From positions 4,379 to 68,378 of the forward strand of contig CASEMS010000016.1 in assembly GCA_949288955.1 (NCBI GenBank): 64,000 nt of DNA, written 5' to 3'. Below are positions 3,769-31,894 of the stretch, in pieces. Positions within the stretch are counted from its first letter, which is position 1. Each line of letters opens with the position of its first letter. This stretch comes from an uncultured Lentisphaeraceae bacterium (GTDB lineage Bacteria; Verrucomicrobiota; Kiritimatiellia; RFP12; DVOR01). The translations under genes were made by a program, and so were the position numbers. A model generated the notes under the pieces. That model saw only the letters and a list, made by a program, of their open reading frames with translations, was not told the DNA's origin and searched no databases.

Positions 3769-4898
3769 GGCAGTGGGCATGGATCGTGGTCGCGGCGGCG
3801 TTGGCCGGCTGCGCGAAGGAAGAGGCGGCGCCGCGGACGGAGAGCCGCCCGCGGGTGCGTGTGTGCGCGCTGACGCCGGGGCTGACCTTCGAGGACGCGG
3901 CGGTGGTGCAGGGCAGCGTCCGCACGAAGTTCACCGCCGCCGTCGCCTCGCGTCTGCCTGGGACGGTGGACGAGGTGCTCGCCGATGAGGGCGACGTGGT
4001 GAAGGCCGGGCAGCCGCTCTTCCAGGTGGATCGCGTGAATCTGGAGAACCAGGTGGCCATCGCGAAGGACGACCAGGCCGTCGCCCGGGCCGCGCGGGAG
4101 GAGGCCCTCGCCGCGCAGGCGGAGGCGGAGGCCGCCCACGCCAAGGCGGAGACCGACGCCACGCGCTTCCGCCGCCTCTACAACGAGTCGCGCTCCGTCA
4201 CCAAGGACGCCTGGGAGAAGGCCGAGTTGCAGCTGCGCTCCGCCGCCGCCGCGCTCGCCCGCGCCAAGGCCGCCGTCGCCACCGCCGATGCCAAGATCCT
4301 CCAGGCGGCCACCGCCCTGCGCATCGCCGAGAAGAACCTGGCTGACTCGCGCGGGCTGGCGCCCTTCGATGGCGTCATCACGCAGAAGTTGCAGGACCGC
4401 GGGGACTATGTTGGCGCGGGCACCCCCATCTTCATGCTCGACGATCCGCGCGTCCGCGAGCTCTGCCTCACCCTCACCGCCGACCGCTACGCCGATGTGG
4501 CGGTGGGCAAGACGTTGGTGGCGGCGGACTTCGGGCAGGAGCTGCCGGTAACCTACAAGGCCCCCACCGTCAACCCGCTGACGCGCACCTTCGAGTTGCG
4601 CGCCGTTACCAAGCCCGACCCCGCCGTGGCGCCGGGGATGCTCTGCGGCGCGCGCATCGTCTTCGCGCGGCGCACGGGCTTCGGTCTGCCCGCGGGGGCG
4701 GTGGCCCTGCGCGGCGGGCGGGAGGTGGCCTTCGTGGTGGGGGATGACGGCGTGGTCGTGGCGGTGGAGGCCAAGCGCGGCGCCTCCGCCGGCGGCATGG
4801 TCGAGATCCTCAACCCCGAGGCCTTCGAGGGCAAGCGCGTCGTGGCCGAGGGGATGCTTCTGCTGAACCCCGGCGACGCCGTGCAGGCCGTGGAGTGA
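3765..4898 (+). CDS. efflux RND periplasmic adaptor (MFP/HlyD family)
   Basis: MRQWAWIVVAAALAGCAKEE lipoprotein signal, a coiled-coil alanine-rich hairpin and barrel domains. Positioned between the OMF and RND pump genes. Confidence 0.85.
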   Translation: MRQWAWIVVAAALAGCAKEEAAPRTESRPRVRVCALTPGLTFEDAAVVQGSVRTKFTAAVASRLPGTVDEVLADEGDVVKAGQPLFQVDRVNLENQVAIAKDDQAVARAAREEALAAQAEAEAAHAKAETDATRFRRLYNESRSVTKDAWEKAELQLRSAAAALARAKAAVATADAKILQAATALRIAEKNLADSRGLAPFDGVITQKLQDRGDYVGAGTPIFMLDDPRVRELCLTLTADRYADVAVGKTLVAADFGQELPVTYKAPTVNPLTRTFELRAVTKPDPAVAPGMLCGARIVFARRTGFGLPAGAVALRGGREVAFVVGDDGVVVAVEAKRGASAGGMVEILNPEAFEGKRVVAEGMLLLNPGDAVQAVE

Positions 4899-26411: not shown

Positions 26412-27671
26412 ATGAACCAAGACACCATCGCCGTCATCGACCTGGGCAGCGCGCGCACCACCGAGATCGCCCGCGCCATCCGCAAAGTCGGCGTCTACAC
26501 CGAGCTCCACCCGCACGACCTCACGGCCGCGCAGCTCGCCGCCATCCCCAACCTCCGCGGCCTCGTGCTCGCCAGCGGCCCCCGCCGCGCCTACGAAGGC
26601 CAGGTCGTCGAGCCCTCCCCCGCCATCCTCGAGGCCGGCCTCCCCCTGCTGGCGGTGGACGACGCGGGCGACCCCGAGCCCGACCTCGCCGCCTTCGTCT
26701 TCAAGACCGGCGCCACCCGCAACTGGGACATGGACAACTTCATCGCCGACCAGGTCGAGGCCATCCGCGCCCAGGTGGGCGACAAGAAGGTGCTCCTGGC
26801 CCTCTCCGGCGGCGTGGACAGCTCCGTCGTCGCCGCCCTCCTCATCCGCGCCATCGGCAAGCAGCTCACCTGCGTCCACGTCAACCACGGCCTCCTCCGC
26901 AAAGGCGAGCCCGAGCAGGTCATCCGCGTCTTCCGCGAGGAGCTGGGCGCCAACCTCGTCTACGTCGACGCCACCGACCGCTTCCTCGGCAAGCTCGAAG
27001 GCGTGGCCGACCCCGAGCAGAAGCGCAAGATCATCGGCGCCGAGTTCATCCGCGTCTTCGAGGAGGAGGCCCGCAAGCTCGACGGCATCGCCTTCCTCGG
27101 CCAGGGCACCATCTACCCCGACATCATCGAGAGCGGCACCAAGACCGCCAAGGCCGTCAAGAGCCACCACAACGTCGGCGGCCTCCCCCCCGACCTCCGG
27201 TTCGAGCTCGTCGAGCCCCTCAAGATGCTCTTCAAGGACGAGGTCCGCGCCTGCGGCCTGGCCCTCGGCCTCCCCGAGGCCATGGTCAACCGCCAGCCCT
27301 TCCCTGGCCCAGGCCTCGGCGTCCGCTGCCTCGGCGCCATCACGCGCGATCGCCTCGAGGCCGTCCGCGCCTCCGACGCCATCCTCCGCGAGGAGTTCGC
27401 CGCCGCCGGCCTCGCCGCCCACGTCTGGCAATACTTCACCCTCATCCCCGACGTCCGCTCAGTCGGCGTCCGCGACGGCGTCCGCGCCTTCGAGTGGCCC
27501 TGCGTCATCCGCGCCGTCAACACCGTCGACGCCATGACCGCCACCGTCGAGCGCCTCCCCTGGCCCCTCATGGAACGCCTCGCCGACCGCATCACCCACG
27601 AGGTCCCCGGCATCAACCGCGTCCTCTTCGACCTCACCCCCAAACCCGTCGGCACCATCGAGTGGGAATGA
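26412..27671 (+). CDS. guaA: GMP synthase with complete ATP-pyrophosphatase and dimerisation domains but a truncated, Cys-less GATase remnant
   Basis: P-loop KKVLLALSGGVDSSV, KSHHNVGGLP, LVEPLKMLFKDEVR and C-terminal PVGTIEWE are canonical GuaA. Only about 125 residues precede the P-loop, and no GxCxG nucleophile elbow is present. Confidence 0.9.
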   Translation: MNQDTIAVIDLGSARTTEIARAIRKVGVYTELHPHDLTAAQLAAIPNLRGLVLASGPRRAYEGQVVEPSPAILEAGLPLLAVDDAGDPEPDLAAFVFKTGATRNWDMDNFIADQVEAIRAQVGDKKVLLALSGGVDSSVVAALLIRAIGKQLTCVHVNHGLLRKGEPEQVIRVFREELGANLVYVDATDRFLGKLEGVADPEQKRKIIGAEFIRVFEEEARKLDGIAFLGQGTIYPDIIESGTKTAKAVKSHHNVGGLPPDLRFELVEPLKMLFKDEVRACGLALGLPEAMVNRQPFPGPGLGVRCLGAITRDRLEAVRASDAILREEFAAAGLAAHVWQYFTLIPDVRSVGVRDGVRAFEWPCVIRAVNTVDAMTATVERLPWPLMERLADRITHEVPGINRVLFDLTPKPVGTIEWE

Positions 27672-27678
27672 GGTGCGG
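27647..27678 (+). repeat. 32-bp direct repeat, left copy (last 25 nt of guaA including the stop codon, plus 7 nt)
   Basis: cgtcggcaccatcgagtgggaatgaggtgcgg is identical to 29443..29474. Confidence 0.95.
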
Positions 27679-27692
27679 ATTCACGCAATCAG

Positions 27693-27720
27693 TCTCCCCG
27701 CCATATCCATGGCGGGGAGA
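27693..27720 (+). other. perfect 12-bp stem hairpin at the left edge of the islet
   Basis: tctccccgccat atcc atggcggggaga. No T-run follows, so it is not a canonical intrinsic terminator. Confidence 0.6.
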
Positions 27721-27779
27721 TGTGGAAGGTTGCCTCACAGACAGTTTAAATAATCAATGTGTTTGGCGTGAACGTGGCT

Positions 27780-28496
27780 ATGCTGTTTGACAATAGGCGG
27801 TTGGAGGAAGAAATATCCCATGCGTTGCGCGTGTTTTGGATGACACGACATCGGCAAGCGCGGCATTCGGAGGATAAGGGTAATCGGGCAGCAGTGACGG
27901 GCGGTCGACAATTGGATGGGTTTGTCACGTTGATTCGCGAGTTGCTTTGCGCGAATGGCGTTCCGAAAGAGGCAATCTTCACGGATGTAGCCTTGGAATT
28001 GCCCGGTTATTATCGACCGAACAAGAAGTGGGATCTCTTGGTGGTGCGTGAGAAACGCCTATTGGCCGCGCTTGAGTTCAAAAGCCAGGTTGGGCCTTCA
28101 TTCGGCAACAACTTCAATAATCGTGCGGAAGAAGCGTTAGGAAGTGCCACGGATTTGTGGACGGCCTATCGGGAAGGCGTGTTTGGGACGAACGTGGCGC
28201 CGTGGGTCGGATATTTTATGTTGGTGGAGGACTGTAAGGCAAGTACGACTCCCGTCGCGGTGCGCTCTGCCCATTTCCCTGTGTTGGAGGAATTTCGGGA
28301 TGTCTCGTATTTGAGACGTTATGAGATCTTTTGCAAGAAGTTGATGTTGGAGCGGCAATATTCCGCGACTTGCTTAATGACGACCTCGTTTCATGCGCCA
28401 TCCTCGATCCATTATGGGTTTCCGGATGAGGCGTTGTCCTTGCAAAAGTTCCTATTTTCGTTGCTTGCTGCGACATGCATCGAGGAACAACGATGA
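27780..28496 (+). CDS. type II restriction endonuclease (PD-(D/E)xK; XhoI/PaeR7I-like by recollection)
   Basis: Overlaps the methyltransferase start (ATGA at 28493..28496). The D...ExK motif is KKWDLLVVREKRLLAALEFKSQVGPSFGNNFNNRAEEA. About 240 aa, the size class of PaeR7I/XhoI enzymes. An alternative GTG start lies at 27759. Confidence 0.65.
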   Translation: MLFDNRRLEEEISHALRVFWMTRHRQARHSEDKGNRAAVTGGRQLDGFVTLIRELLCANGVPKEAIFTDVALELPGYYRPNKKWDLLVVREKRLLAALEFKSQVGPSFGNNFNNRAEEALGSATDLWTAYREGVFGTNVAPWVGYFMLVEDCKASTTPVAVRSAHFPVLEEFRDVSYLRRYEIFCKKLMLERQYSATCLMTTSFHAPSSIHYGFPDEALSLQKFLFSLLAATCIEEQR

Positions 28497-29314
28497 CGCA
28501 TCACACGCTTTATCATGGTGATGCGAGGTCGTTGTCGTTCATCGATGACGCGAGTATCCATTTGGTGCTTACCTCTCCGCCATATTGGAACCTCAAGGCT
28601 TATGAGCGCGGAGAGCGGCAGTTGGGAATAATCGATGATTACGCCACGTTCGTCGCCGAATTGGAAAAGGTGTGGCGAGAGTGTTATCGGGTGTTGGTCC
28701 CTGGTGGGCGTGTCGTTTGTGTGGTTGGGGATGTGTGCCTGTCGCGAAAAGAGTACGGTCGCCATGCGGTTATGCCCTTGCATGCTGACATCGCCGTGAG
28801 TTGCCGAAAACTAGGTTTCGATAATCTCAACCCAATCATTTGGCATAAGATCTCGAACGCACGTTTCGAGGCGAACACGCATAGTTCTTTCTTGGGGAAG
28901 CCTTACGAACCTAATGCCATCATCAAGAATGACATCGAATTCATTCTCATGGAACGCAAACCTGGTGGTTATCGGAAGCCTTCGGTGGAGCAACGCAAGG
29001 CTAGCATGATTGGGAAAGAAGAGTTTCAGGCGTGGTTTTCCCAGTTCTGGGAACTGCCAGGTGCTTCGACAAAAAACGGCCATCCGGCTCCTTTCCCCTT
29101 GGAGTTGGCTAGCCGTTTGGTGCAAATGTTTTCTTTTTCCGGCGACACGGTGTTAGACCCGTTTTGCGGGAGTGGTACGACAATGCTGGCAGCCATGCAG
29201 AATAATCGCAATAGCATCGGGGTCGAGGCCGAACAATTGTATTGCGATGGTATCTTGAGTCGTTTGCGTGAGCCATTTTTAGGGAGTGAGGTAACGTTCA
29301 TCGATGCGCTATAG
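28493..29314 (+). CDS. beta-class N4-cytosine/N6-adenine DNA methyltransferase
   Basis: Motif IV TSPPYW near the N-terminus and motif I VLDPFCGSGTT near the C-terminus give the beta-class order. Shine-Dalgarno GAGGAA upstream. Confidence 0.9.
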   Translation: MTHHTLYHGDARSLSFIDDASIHLVLTSPPYWNLKAYERGERQLGIIDDYATFVAELEKVWRECYRVLVPGGRVVCVVGDVCLSRKEYGRHAVMPLHADIAVSCRKLGFDNLNPIIWHKISNARFEANTHSSFLGKPYEPNAIIKNDIEFILMERKPGGYRKPSVEQRKASMIGKEEFQAWFSQFWELPGASTKNGHPAPFPLELASRLVQMFSFSGDTVLDPFCGSGTTMLAAMQNNRNSIGVEAEQLYCDGILSRLREPFLGSEVTFIDAL

Positions 29315-29442
29315 AGTGGCCCTAAACACGCTATTGCTTGCGTTTGATTTCTTCTTTGAGGGTGTGGGGAGGAGAAGCGTGGCCTCAATCTCTTGCACAT
29401 AATCTGCAAGACCGCTTCTCCGCCCTACGAATATCACGTGCG

Positions 29443-29474
29443 CGTCGGCACCATCGAGTGGGAATGAGGTGCGG
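29443..29474 (+). repeat. 32-bp direct repeat, right copy (duplicated guaA 3' end)
   Basis: Identical to 27647..27678. Confidence 0.95.
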
Positions 29475-29507
29475 GGCTTCGCACGCCGTCGCCTGCGGGA
29501 GAGGGGG

Positions 29508-30131
29508 TCAGGGGCGGAGGCGGCGGAGGATGGGCCAGAGGACCCAGAGGCCGATGGCGGCGACGGCGAGGGCGGCGGCGCGTCCGGCCCAGACGGCGGC
29601 GGCGGGGTTGGCGCGGAGGAAGGCGGCGAGGCCGCCGCCGGCGAGGGCGAAGGCCGCCATCACGAGGGCCGCGCAGAGGGCGAAGAGGGCGCCAAGGCCC
29701 AGCAACCCCAGGGCGCGGCGGCGGCAACCCTCGGGGAGGAATTGGGGGAGGAAGGCGACGAAGAAGAGGATGACCTTGGGGTTGGAGAGGTTGAGGAGCA
29801 CGCCGCGCAGCCAGAAGCCGAGGGGGCCGAGCGCCTCGGCCCGCGCCGTCCCGAGGCCCGCGCCCCACATCCCCCACGCCATATAGAACAGGTAGCAGGC
29901 GCCGAGGGCGGAGATGGCGTCCGCGGCGCGGGGCCAGCGTTTGAGAAGGGCGGCGACGCCGAGCGCGGCGAGGGTGATGTGGAGGCAGAGGCCGCTGACC
30001 AGCCCGGCGGTGACGCAGAGCCCGGCCCACGCGCCGAAGGCGGCGGATTGCGCGAGCACGAAGCAGTTGTCCGGCCCGGGGGCGAGGGCCACGAGGAGGC
30101 AGGCGCCGAGGTAGGCGGCGAGGCGCCTCAT
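29508..30131 (-). CDS. LysE/RhtB family amino-acid exporter
   Basis: MRRLAAYLGACLLVALAPGPDNCFVLAQSAAFG...LRGVLLNLSNPKVILFFVAFLPQF is a typical LysE-family pattern. ATGA overlap with the maf stop. Confidence 0.85.
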   Translation of the reverse strand: MRRLAAYLGACLLVALAPGPDNCFVLAQSAAFGAWAGLCVTAGLVSGLCLHITLAALGVAALLKRWPRAADAISALGACYLFYMAWGMWGAGLGTARAEALGPLGFWLRGVLLNLSNPKVILFFVAFLPQFLPEGCRRRALGLLGLGALFALCAALVMAAFALAGGGLAAFLRANPAAAVWAGRAAALAVAAIGLWVLWPILRRLRP

Positions 30132-30864: not shown

Positions 30865-30895
30865 TTGACCTGGAGCGCACACCATGTGCTATCGT
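30865..30895 (+). promoter_or_regulatory. predicted promoter for the DUF362 gene
   Basis: TTGACC (30865..30870) and TGcTATCGT (30887..30895). The spacer is 16 or 19 nt depending on the -10 register. Confidence 0.35.
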
Positions 30896-30922
30896 GGACT
30901 TCGCAATGAAAGGAGTGTGTTT

Positions 30923-31894
30923 ATGAACCGAAGGGCATTTCTGACGGCCTCGCTCGGCGCGTTGGCGGCGGGCGCGGCGCCTCTCTCCCCCGCGCGGGCG
31001 GAGGGCAAGCCGAAGGCTTGGGCCGGCGCCGAGGGGCCGGCGGTCTATTTCACCAAGGACATCTCCCCCGCGGGGCTGCGAAAGGCCTTCGACGCGCTGA
31101 AGGCCAACCTGCCGGGCAAGGTGGGGGTGAAGGTCTCGACGGGCGAGCCGGGCGGCCACAACTTCCTGAACCCGCAGTTGGTCAAGGGCTTGGTGCAGGG
31201 GCTGCGGGCGAACATCGTGGAGTGCAACACGGCCTACGGCGGTCGGCGCGGCACGCTTCACGACCACATCCGCGCGGCGGTGGAGCACGGCTGGTGCGAC
31301 ATCGCCACCGTGGACATCCTGGACGGCGTGGCGACGATGGACCTGCCCGCGCCGGAGGGGGCCAAGCGGCTGCGCAAGGACATCGTGGGCGCGAACTTCC
31401 GCGACTACGCGTCCTTCCTCGTCCTCTCCCACTTCAAGGGGCACGCGATGGGCGGCTTCGGCGGGGCGCTGAAGAATCTCTCCATCGGCTTCGCCTCCCG
31501 CGCGGGCAAGTGCCTCATCCACACCGGCGGTAAGACGGAGAAGACGTGGATGGGCGGCGAGCAGCTCGCCTTCCTGGAGGCGATGGCCGAGGCCGCCACC
31601 GCCGTCTGCCGCGCCCGCCCGGGGGCGATGGCCTTCGTCAACGTCATGAACCGCCTCTCGGTGGATTGCGACTGCGACAGCAGCCCCTCCGAGCCGACGA
31701 TGCGGGATATCGGCATCCTCGCCTCCCTCGACCCCGTGGCCCTCGACCAAGCCTGCGTGGATCTCGTCTACGCCGCGCCCGACGGCGCCGACCTCATCGC
31801 GCGGATGGAGAGCCGCCAAGGCATCCACACCGTGGAGCACGCCGCGGCGCTCGGCCTCGGCTCCCGCGCCTACCGGCTGGTCGAACTGGGCTGA
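30923..31894 (+). CDS. DUF362 domain protein with Tat-type signal
   Basis: MNRRAFLTASLGALAAGAAP is a twin-arginine-like signal. FKGHAMGGFGGALKNLSIGF and the Cys-rich VDCDCDSSP fit DUF362. Shine-Dalgarno AAAGGAG upstream. Confidence 0.7.
   Translation: MNRRAFLTASLGALAAGAAPLSPARAEGKPKAWAGAEGPAVYFTKDISPAGLRKAFDALKANLPGKVGVKVSTGEPGGHNFLNPQLVKGLVQGLRANIVECNTAYGGRRGTLHDHIRAAVEHGWCDIATVDILDGVATMDLPAPEGAKRLRKDIVGANFRDYASFLVLSHFKGHAMGGFGGALKNLSIGFASRAGKCLIHTGGKTEKTWMGGEQLAFLEAMAEAATAVCRARPGAMAFVNVMNRLSVDCDCDSSPSEPTMRDIGILASLDPVALDQACVDLVYAAPDGADLIARMESRQGIHTVEHAAALGLGSRAYRLVELG

Follow-up and report, generated by a model that had tools for sequence, protein, structure and literature searches.

Restriction-modification (R-M) genes inserted 'with long target duplication' were described by Nobusato et al. 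(2000) and by Furuta, Abe & Kobayashi (2010), who left the mechanism open (PMC2853133), and such pairs have been catalogued since 2000 without one. By the operational definition of the later study, the insertion contains homologues of both the restriction (R) and the modification (M) gene, is shorter than 20 kb with no other mobile genes, is bounded by a duplication longer than 30 bp, and has a related empty site at which the duplicated sequence is present as a single copy (PMC2853133). Here we analyze a 64,000-nt stretch of contig CASEMS010000016.1 from an uncultured Lentisphaeraceae bacterium (hereafter the window), in which a small R-M islet lies between two copies of a 32-bp repeat at guaA's 3' end (guaA being the GMP synthase gene). 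The islet is a case of this known class, and we propose, with a probability of about 0.45, that it is a foreign chromosomal piece captured through the conserved guaA 3' end without the help of a site-specific recombinase.

The end of guaA is itself a known attachment (att) site for genomic islands, as the original prediction had stated. The att core at guaA is GAGTGGGA for GIsul2 (PMC9376610), GAGTGGGAATA for Tn5801/Tn6647 (PMC4844618; bioRxiv 10.64898/2026.03.26.714560) and GAGTGGGAATAAT for GIflu-1 (PMC13418153), and the GIsul2 integrase is able to mobilize an integrase-less unit lying between such sites (PMC9376610). A different route is offered by one-sided homology, which leads either to insertion with deletion or, when the incoming fragment is re-circularized, to duplication of the homologous segment by a single crossover; both outcomes have been produced experimentally (PMC3240628).

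Architecture of the islet

The perfect 32-mer CGTCGGCACCATCGAGTGGGAATGAGGTGCGG is present in exactly two copies in the window, at 27647-27678 and 29443-29474, as originally reported, and a match of this kind arose in 0/100 shuffles. The repeat had been described as eight codons plus the stop of guaA; it is in fact made up of 1 nt of a Pro codon, the final 7 sense codons, the TGA stop (27669-27671) and 7 additional nt. The left copy takes in the last 25 nt of guaA (26412..27671, + strand), which encodes a short GMP synthase of 419 aa (NCBIfam PRK00074, E 4e-153; Pfam GMP_synt_C), and the right copy, in the same orientation, is an orphan guaA 3' end. The 1,764 nt between them have a G+C content of 51.3%, compared with 68.2% for the window outside them, 72-77% for the DNA directly on either side and roughly 70% for the host genome, which confirms the low-G+C interval of 1.76 kb first noticed and places the islet 17-20 points under its host. 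Because this composition is unlike that of the host and empty sites occur in the same species (see below), the islet is foreign DNA.

The islet contains only two genes, both on the + strand: a restriction endonuclease of the XhoI family (27780..28496; 238 aa; PF04555, E 4.8e-81) and a beta-class amino-methyltransferase (28493..29314; 273 aa; PF01555, E 1.5e-41), whose start overlaps the end of the former in the predicted ATGA at 28493-28496. The left non-coding end of the islet (27679..27779, +) starts with ATTCACGC… and holds a GC hairpin with a perfect stem of 12-13 bp (27693-27720; -31 kcal/mol, z -4.5). The right non-coding end (29315..29442, +), which terminates in …CACGTGCG (also …TATCACGTGCG), includes a nested inverted repeat spanning 29364-29428 (arms of 16 nt at 29364-29379 and 29413-29428, 88% complementary) and, at about 29381-29439, the 5' stub of an ATP-binding cassette (ABC) transporter gene. 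The hairpin and the inverted repeat had both been seen in the first reading of the DNA, and so had the lack of an integrase: no recombinase gene was found in the islet by open reading frame (ORF) and domain annotation, and tblastn with two guaA-site integrases as queries gave no homologue in the 64-kb window. A DNA search of a plasmid collection with the islet returned only 69% identity over 10% of its length. The islet is not a self-mobile element.

The nearest homologue of the endonuclease beyond its own cluster is 65% identical, and a PDB sequence search with it gave no match. The methyltransferase matches PDB entry 2ZIE (Thermus TTHA0409) with an E of 2e-102 and carries TSPPYW followed by DPFCGSGTT, the motif order of the beta class. 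Under the usual motif-IV rule, TSPPYW points to N4-cytosine methylation, which is probably the modification made by this enzyme. The islet pair resembles Type II R-M systems of the XhoI/PaeR7I type (PF04555) in its endonuclease family and its compact two-gene plan, but differs from them in having R before M, in lacking a C-protein gene, and in its methyltransferase, a small beta-class SPPY enzyme like TTHA0409 and unlike the PaeR7I/XhoI methylase, which is a gamma-class N6-adenine enzyme. CTCGAG occurs 13 times in the host part of the window, where 29 occurrences are expected, and 0 times in the islet, counts that hint at CTCGAG as the sequence recognized by the pair, although this is a guess. 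Across haplotypes, the methyltransferase gene has 6-17 single-nucleotide polymorphisms (SNPs) each, all of them synonymous, and the endonuclease gene has 0-9 synonymous and 0-4 non-synonymous changes. Since the former are synonymous throughout and the latter include few non-synonymous changes, both genes are under purifying selection, and the pair is predicted to be a functional, horizontally acquired Type II R-M system.

Alleles of the guaA-LysE junction

By exact-protein look-ups, more than 20 metagenome contigs of the same species were gathered from about 23 samples; the window stretch is contained in chicken and bird gut metagenome runs, guaA is called as 419 aa in all of the metagenome contigs, and the best genome match of GuaA (88%) is an uncultured Kiritimatiellaeota metagenome-assembled genome. 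The junction between guaA and its convergent right-hand neighbor, a LysE-family exporter gene (29508..30131, - strand; PF01810, E 7e-26), is found in three states. About 13 samples carry the islet, always with the two repeat copies 1,796 nt apart. An unrelated pair, comprising a D12-class (Dam-like) methyltransferase and a 237-aa winged-helix/HNH-like protein, occupies the junction in about 8 samples. The remaining state, in 2 samples (L013 and L018), is empty, with a single 32-mer, after which come 171 nt of intergenic sequence containing a strong terminator; these are the unoccupied guaA-LysE junctions with which a comparison had been proposed. The right copy of the repeat is identical in all of the 20+ contigs read.

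Two islet carriers from different studies, L009 and L140, have the order guaA-repeat-islet-repeat-terminator region-LysE, and the empty sites have guaA-repeat-terminator region-LysE. Because L009 and L140 keep the terminator region of the empty site, the primary event was an insertion of 1,764 bp accompanied by a 32-bp duplication. The window, like most other carriers, lacks 130 nt of the terminator region, which were lost between two GGCTT pentamers (GGCTT/GGCWT bounds); a single GGCTT is left as a deletion scar at 29475..29479 (+). The presence of the 130-nt region in L009 and L140 identifies it as original intergenic DNA, and the comparison of these haplotypes places its loss after the insertion of the islet. 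The idea that the 130-nt region is a small mobile element that duplicated GGCTT was rejected, as no other copy was found in the window or the loci. The junction string guaA-repeat-GGCTTCGCACG would be diagnostic of an excised site with neither islet nor terminator region.

The left copy of the repeat is the variable one. In L140 it reads …GGGAATAAGCTGTGG and then ATTCAC, with TAA and GCTGTGG in place of the TGA and GGTGCGG of the right copy; the two copies match perfectly over 23 nt and at 6/9 positions thereafter, with 3 mismatches that all fall within the last 10 nt. This variant, for which the diagnostic left junction string is GGGAATAAGCTGTGGATTCAC, heads a diverged block corresponding to 27670-28061, and a third variant of the left copy is held by L008. 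The Dam-like allele (L011:7259-8949; also L014, L015, L017, L020, L023, L027 and L028) encodes the D12-class methyltransferase as a 302-aa protein and combines, in its 237-aa partner, a winged helix with a Cys-rich C-terminus of HNH-like character. The left junction of the allele falls within the guaA stop (TGA to TAA), a hairpin follows directly after guaA, no repeat flanks the allele, and about 22 nt of host DNA are missing.

The SNPs in the flanks are mosaic among the three alleles, which indicates that the locus recombines freely and that the islet segregates in the manner of an accessory allele, one of at least three at this junction. Diversity within the islet reaches 2% in M and 4% in one block of R, as high as that of the flanking genes, and no donor-derived SNP tract is visible in guaA of the islet carriers amid this mosaic. 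In L003 and L006, guaA and the DNA upstream of it (left of ~27500) are 5-24% divergent from the window and become identical to it from ~150 nt before the islet, a pattern with two possible sources: homologous recombination that carried the islet from one diverged lineage to another, or a metagenome assembly that is chimeric. A second presence/absence polymorphism lies 1.5 kb from the islet, where a 323-aa DUF362 gene between Maf and ComEC (window 30884-31894) is reduced to a 64-aa remnant in L002, L003 and L004.

Measured against the definition of Furuta et al. (2010), the insert contains R and M homologues (PF04555 and PF01555), spans 1,764 bp with two genes and none of mobile-element type, is flanked by a duplication just above the 30-bp limit (32/32 in the window and most contigs, less in L140), and is missing from sites with a single repeat copy (L013 and L018, as opposed to L009 and L140). 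The structure therefore falls fully within the operational definition of the class, whatever route produced it. R and M are the sole cargo, no mobility gene is present and, as in the Haemophilus influenzae cases, the repeat takes in a gene's 3' end. The islet stands apart in that its 32-bp repeat barely exceeds the cut-off, and in that a homology-anchored route is suggested by three features: a donor-type locus, the stub of a donor gene and a left copy that varies.

Origin of the islet

Contigs of a sister lineage (L128-L131) encode the proteins most similar to the islet methyltransferase (83-84% aa identity), and the endonuclease of this lineage is 65% identical to that of the islet at the amino acid level. 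Here, guaA with a TAA stop is followed by a spacer of about 240 nt, then by R and M, and then by an SBP_bac_3/permease ABC gene of full length, and no direct repeats flanking the R-M genes were found on these contigs. The start of that ABC gene lines up colinearly with the final ~60 nt of the islet, at 76% identity over 59 nt by blastn (E 4e-6) and 47% over 32 aa by tblastn (E 0.002); the 35-aa stub in the window, which is too short to score in a Pfam scan, encodes …ICKTASPPYEYHV, where the sister lineage has …ICEATFPPYEYHV. The similarity stops 3 nt short of the right repeat, as expected if an illegitimate joint had truncated a gene of the donor. Since its right end is a truncated ABC gene colinear with that of the sister lineage, the islet seems to be a fragment, cut arbitrarily, of a chromosome in which R-M genes are followed by this gene. 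Moreover, since the sister unit, from the sole lineage in which it was seen complete, stands directly behind guaA and before the ABC gene, both donor-type neighbors would have been kept around the islet. The guaA 3' ends of the two lineages are 97.7% identical over 173 nt, and the intergenic DNA is not alignable. The left non-coding end of the islet may be the 3' flank of the donor guaA with its terminator; no similarity was found between it and the guaA-R spacer of L128-L131. That spacer has a feature of its own: a palindromic motif of the CCCTTATAAGG(G/T) type, present in four copies that are phased and lie immediately upstream of R (L129:500-620; also L128:500-560).

From these observations we infer a donor arrangement and a recombination route. 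The donor chromosome would have had the order guaA, R, M and ABC transporter gene, with the junction guaA-TAAGCTGTGG-ATTCACGC…R-M-ABC and with …CCGCCCTACGAATATCACGTG running on into a complete SBP/ABC gene, and a piece of 1.76 kb would have been captured from it. For the islet, a re-circularized donor fragment that retained about 23-32 nt of the guaA end could have entered by a single crossover, giving insertion with duplication; the left repeat copy would then be the guaA end of the donor and the right copy that of the recipient, and the illegitimate joint would be the left boundary of the repeat beside the ABC-gene stub. Homology-facilitated illegitimate recombination of a linear fragment is a second route that would fit the islet. 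For the Dam-like allele, a linear fragment could have recombined homologously in guaA and joined illegitimately at its far end, giving insertion with deletion. Later, homologous recombination in guaA and LysE would have spread the islet through the species and shuffled it, and most carriers lost the 130-nt terminator region. The pair is retained by purifying selection and presumably also by R-M addiction, that is, by post-segregational killing.

The proposal is supported by the clean insertion in L009 and L140, the truncated gene at the right end, the near-identity of the guaA ends of the two lineages, the lack of a recombinase in islet and window, the mosaic flanks and the synonymous changes in M, and also by two of the junctions. 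The left copy in L140 has the pattern expected under capture, because a left copy derived from a donor would differ from that of the recipient. The Dam-like allele fits the same route, because it has a TAA and a hairpin after guaA, no repeat, and a loss of ~22 nt; insertion with loss of host DNA is the classical outcome of homology-facilitated illegitimate recombination, a process that de Vries and Wackernagel reportedly treated in 2002. A ComEC gene 2 kb from the islet was counted toward competence. On this reading, the locus shares with homology-facilitated illegitimate recombination and single-crossover capture a one-sided anchor, an illegitimate far joint, and either deletion (the Dam-like allele) or duplication (the islet) (PMC3240628), and differs from the experimental cases in that capture is here deduced from natural variation and the duplicated homology is very short (23-32 nt).

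Several points weigh against capture. In the window and most haplotypes, the left and right copies agree at all 32 positions, the 7 post-stop nt among them, so that capture requires either a later short conversion of the three mismatches or that the L140 variant arose by later mutation. It is for this reason that we hold the probability of capture to the value given at the outset and leave weight to the alternatives below. RecA-type recombination would be working at its lower limit if the crossover fell within 23-32 nt, and natural competence of this uncultured organism is unproven. The matches to the ABC stub are short, at 59 nt and 32 aa (E 0.002). The R-M DNA of L128-L131 is only about 70% identical to that of the islet, and our searches turned up no true donor, in which R-M genes at least 95% identical would stand beside guaA and an ABC gene of full length. 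Finally, the repeat holds the canonical integrase core, whose presence capture has to treat as a consequence of guaA conservation. A scan of JGI metagenomes with the 23-mer from the guaA end retrieved unrelated organisms only, with about 58% G+C; this 23-mer is conserved across hosts.

The core is the starting point of the first alternative, namely that the islet is a minimal att-flanked cassette resembling CR2-sul2 or the cis-mobilizable elements (CIMEs), with the repeats as attL and attR, and was moved in trans by a guaA-specific tyrosine integrase encoded elsewhere. The published guaA cores all fall within the 32-bp repeat, and GAGTGGGAATGA, the core of GIsul2, Tn5801/Tn6647 and GIflu-1, is found in both copies (27660-27671 in the left one). 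The CR2-sul2 unit of GIsul2 and the CIMEs are likewise recombinase-less, situated at the guaA 3' end and bounded by repeats that contain GAGTGGGA (PMC9376610). An integrase element at this position is found in a sister species (L029), where low-G+C DNA extends from the guaA stop onward and an integrative mobilizable element (L029:6237-11233) encodes a helix-turn-helix protein, a 358-aa tyrosine integrase, NikA and an AAA_25 protein. A related element in L125 has an att site that matches the attL core of the L029 element, GAGTGGGAGTGATT. That related element, in a Firmicute-like genome (L118/L125), shares the L029 backbone at 77% nt identity, with 71% identity between the integrases, and, beside its right att site, carries an XhoI-type R-M system (64% aa identity to that of the islet) and an OLD-family nuclease. 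The tandem GAGTGGGARTRA att sites of L125 (L125:3938-15100; sites at 3938, 13716, 14316 and 15054) bracket one integrase element and two mini-elements of 600-740 bp with small ORFs. The left copy of L140 and the Dam-like allele would, moreover, supply a TAA stop in the manner of element-borne gene ends.

Mobilization in trans is nevertheless difficult to reconcile with the ends of the islet. In the local integrase-element family, att sites have just a ~12-nt core in common, whereas the identity of the islet repeat reaches 13 nt upstream of the core, and the islet ends, searched for vestigial att arms, gave no alignment to four att sites of this family above shuffled controls. With this extension beyond the core, with no similarity to arms and with no integrase homologue in the 64-kb window, the 32-bp repeat is probably not a pair of integrase att sites. 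The islet also differs from CR2-sul2 and the CIMEs in that its right end is a truncated chromosomal gene and not an arm, and no helper integrase for it was found in the window; the Dam-like allele has no right-hand att copy. Contigs from four runs in Logan break exactly at the 32-bp repeat (k = 31) and are hence uninformative on excision or circles. Taken together, we consider movement by an integrase in trans unlikely. The original prediction had taken the duplication as the signature of site-specific integration, which the extent of the repeat and the nature of the ends do not support. Of the two origins it offered, a decayed minimal island is likewise not supported by a right end formed by a truncated donor gene, and an R-M cassette without a recombinase of its own comes nearer to the evidence.

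A second alternative, the mechanism that Nobusato et al. (2000) and Furuta et al. (2010) left open, dispenses with both anchor and integrase. An R-M fragment could have entered at a widely staggered break or by a replication template switch, with 32 bp copied during repair and the position at guaA coincidental or permissive. Such de novo duplication would account for a perfect repeat in which both copies, including the 7 post-stop nt, equal the empty site in most haplotypes, and it agrees with the absence of a recombinase and with the operational definition of the class. It leaves unexplained why homologous R-M genes stand directly behind guaA in L128-L131 and why the left copy of L140 is divergent, and it invokes a route with no known molecular mechanism; we rate it lower again. 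That the R-M genes are instead old in the lineage, with the empty and alternative alleles produced by deletion between the repeats, is very improbable, given a G+C content so far under that of the host, a repeat that itself requires an insertion event and site contents that differ among sister lineages, even though the islet is as diverse as its flanks and empty sites are rare (2 of ~23 samples).

The guaA 3' end as an acquisition site

The guaA gene has peculiarities of its own. The amidotransferase N-terminal model (188 positions) is matched at positions 1-76 only (26412-26810), and the closest relatives of GuaA outside the lineage are from Clostridia, at about 74% aa identity. Because of these clostridial relatives, the comparison suggests that guaA itself was horizontally acquired.

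The guaA 3' end could serve as a docking site of two tiers across phyla. In the first, integrase elements would deliver defense cargo such as XhoI-type R-M systems; in the second, after the decay of such elements, the cargo would stay linked to a nearly invariant gene end, which would act as a one-sided homology handle through which bare R-M genes pass from lineage to lineage by transformation-type capture. We offer this as a speculative and, on balance, doubtful extension of homology-anchored capture. If true, it would explain in concrete terms how R-M genes come to be inserted 'with long target duplication', which has long lacked an explanation.

In summary, the guaA-LysE locus presents natural intermediates within a single population that recombines: sites that are empty, insertions that are clean, that have a donor-type left repeat or that bear a secondary deletion, and a second R-M allele of deletion type, to which the sister lineage adds a probable donor gene order. 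The guaA hotspot, known from Proteobacteria and Firmicutes, is now extended to gut Kiritimatiellota. If capture through the conserved end of guaA is the true origin of the islet, many 'long target duplications' could be two copies of a conserved gene end, one from the donor and one from the recipient, and no special insertion reaction would be needed.

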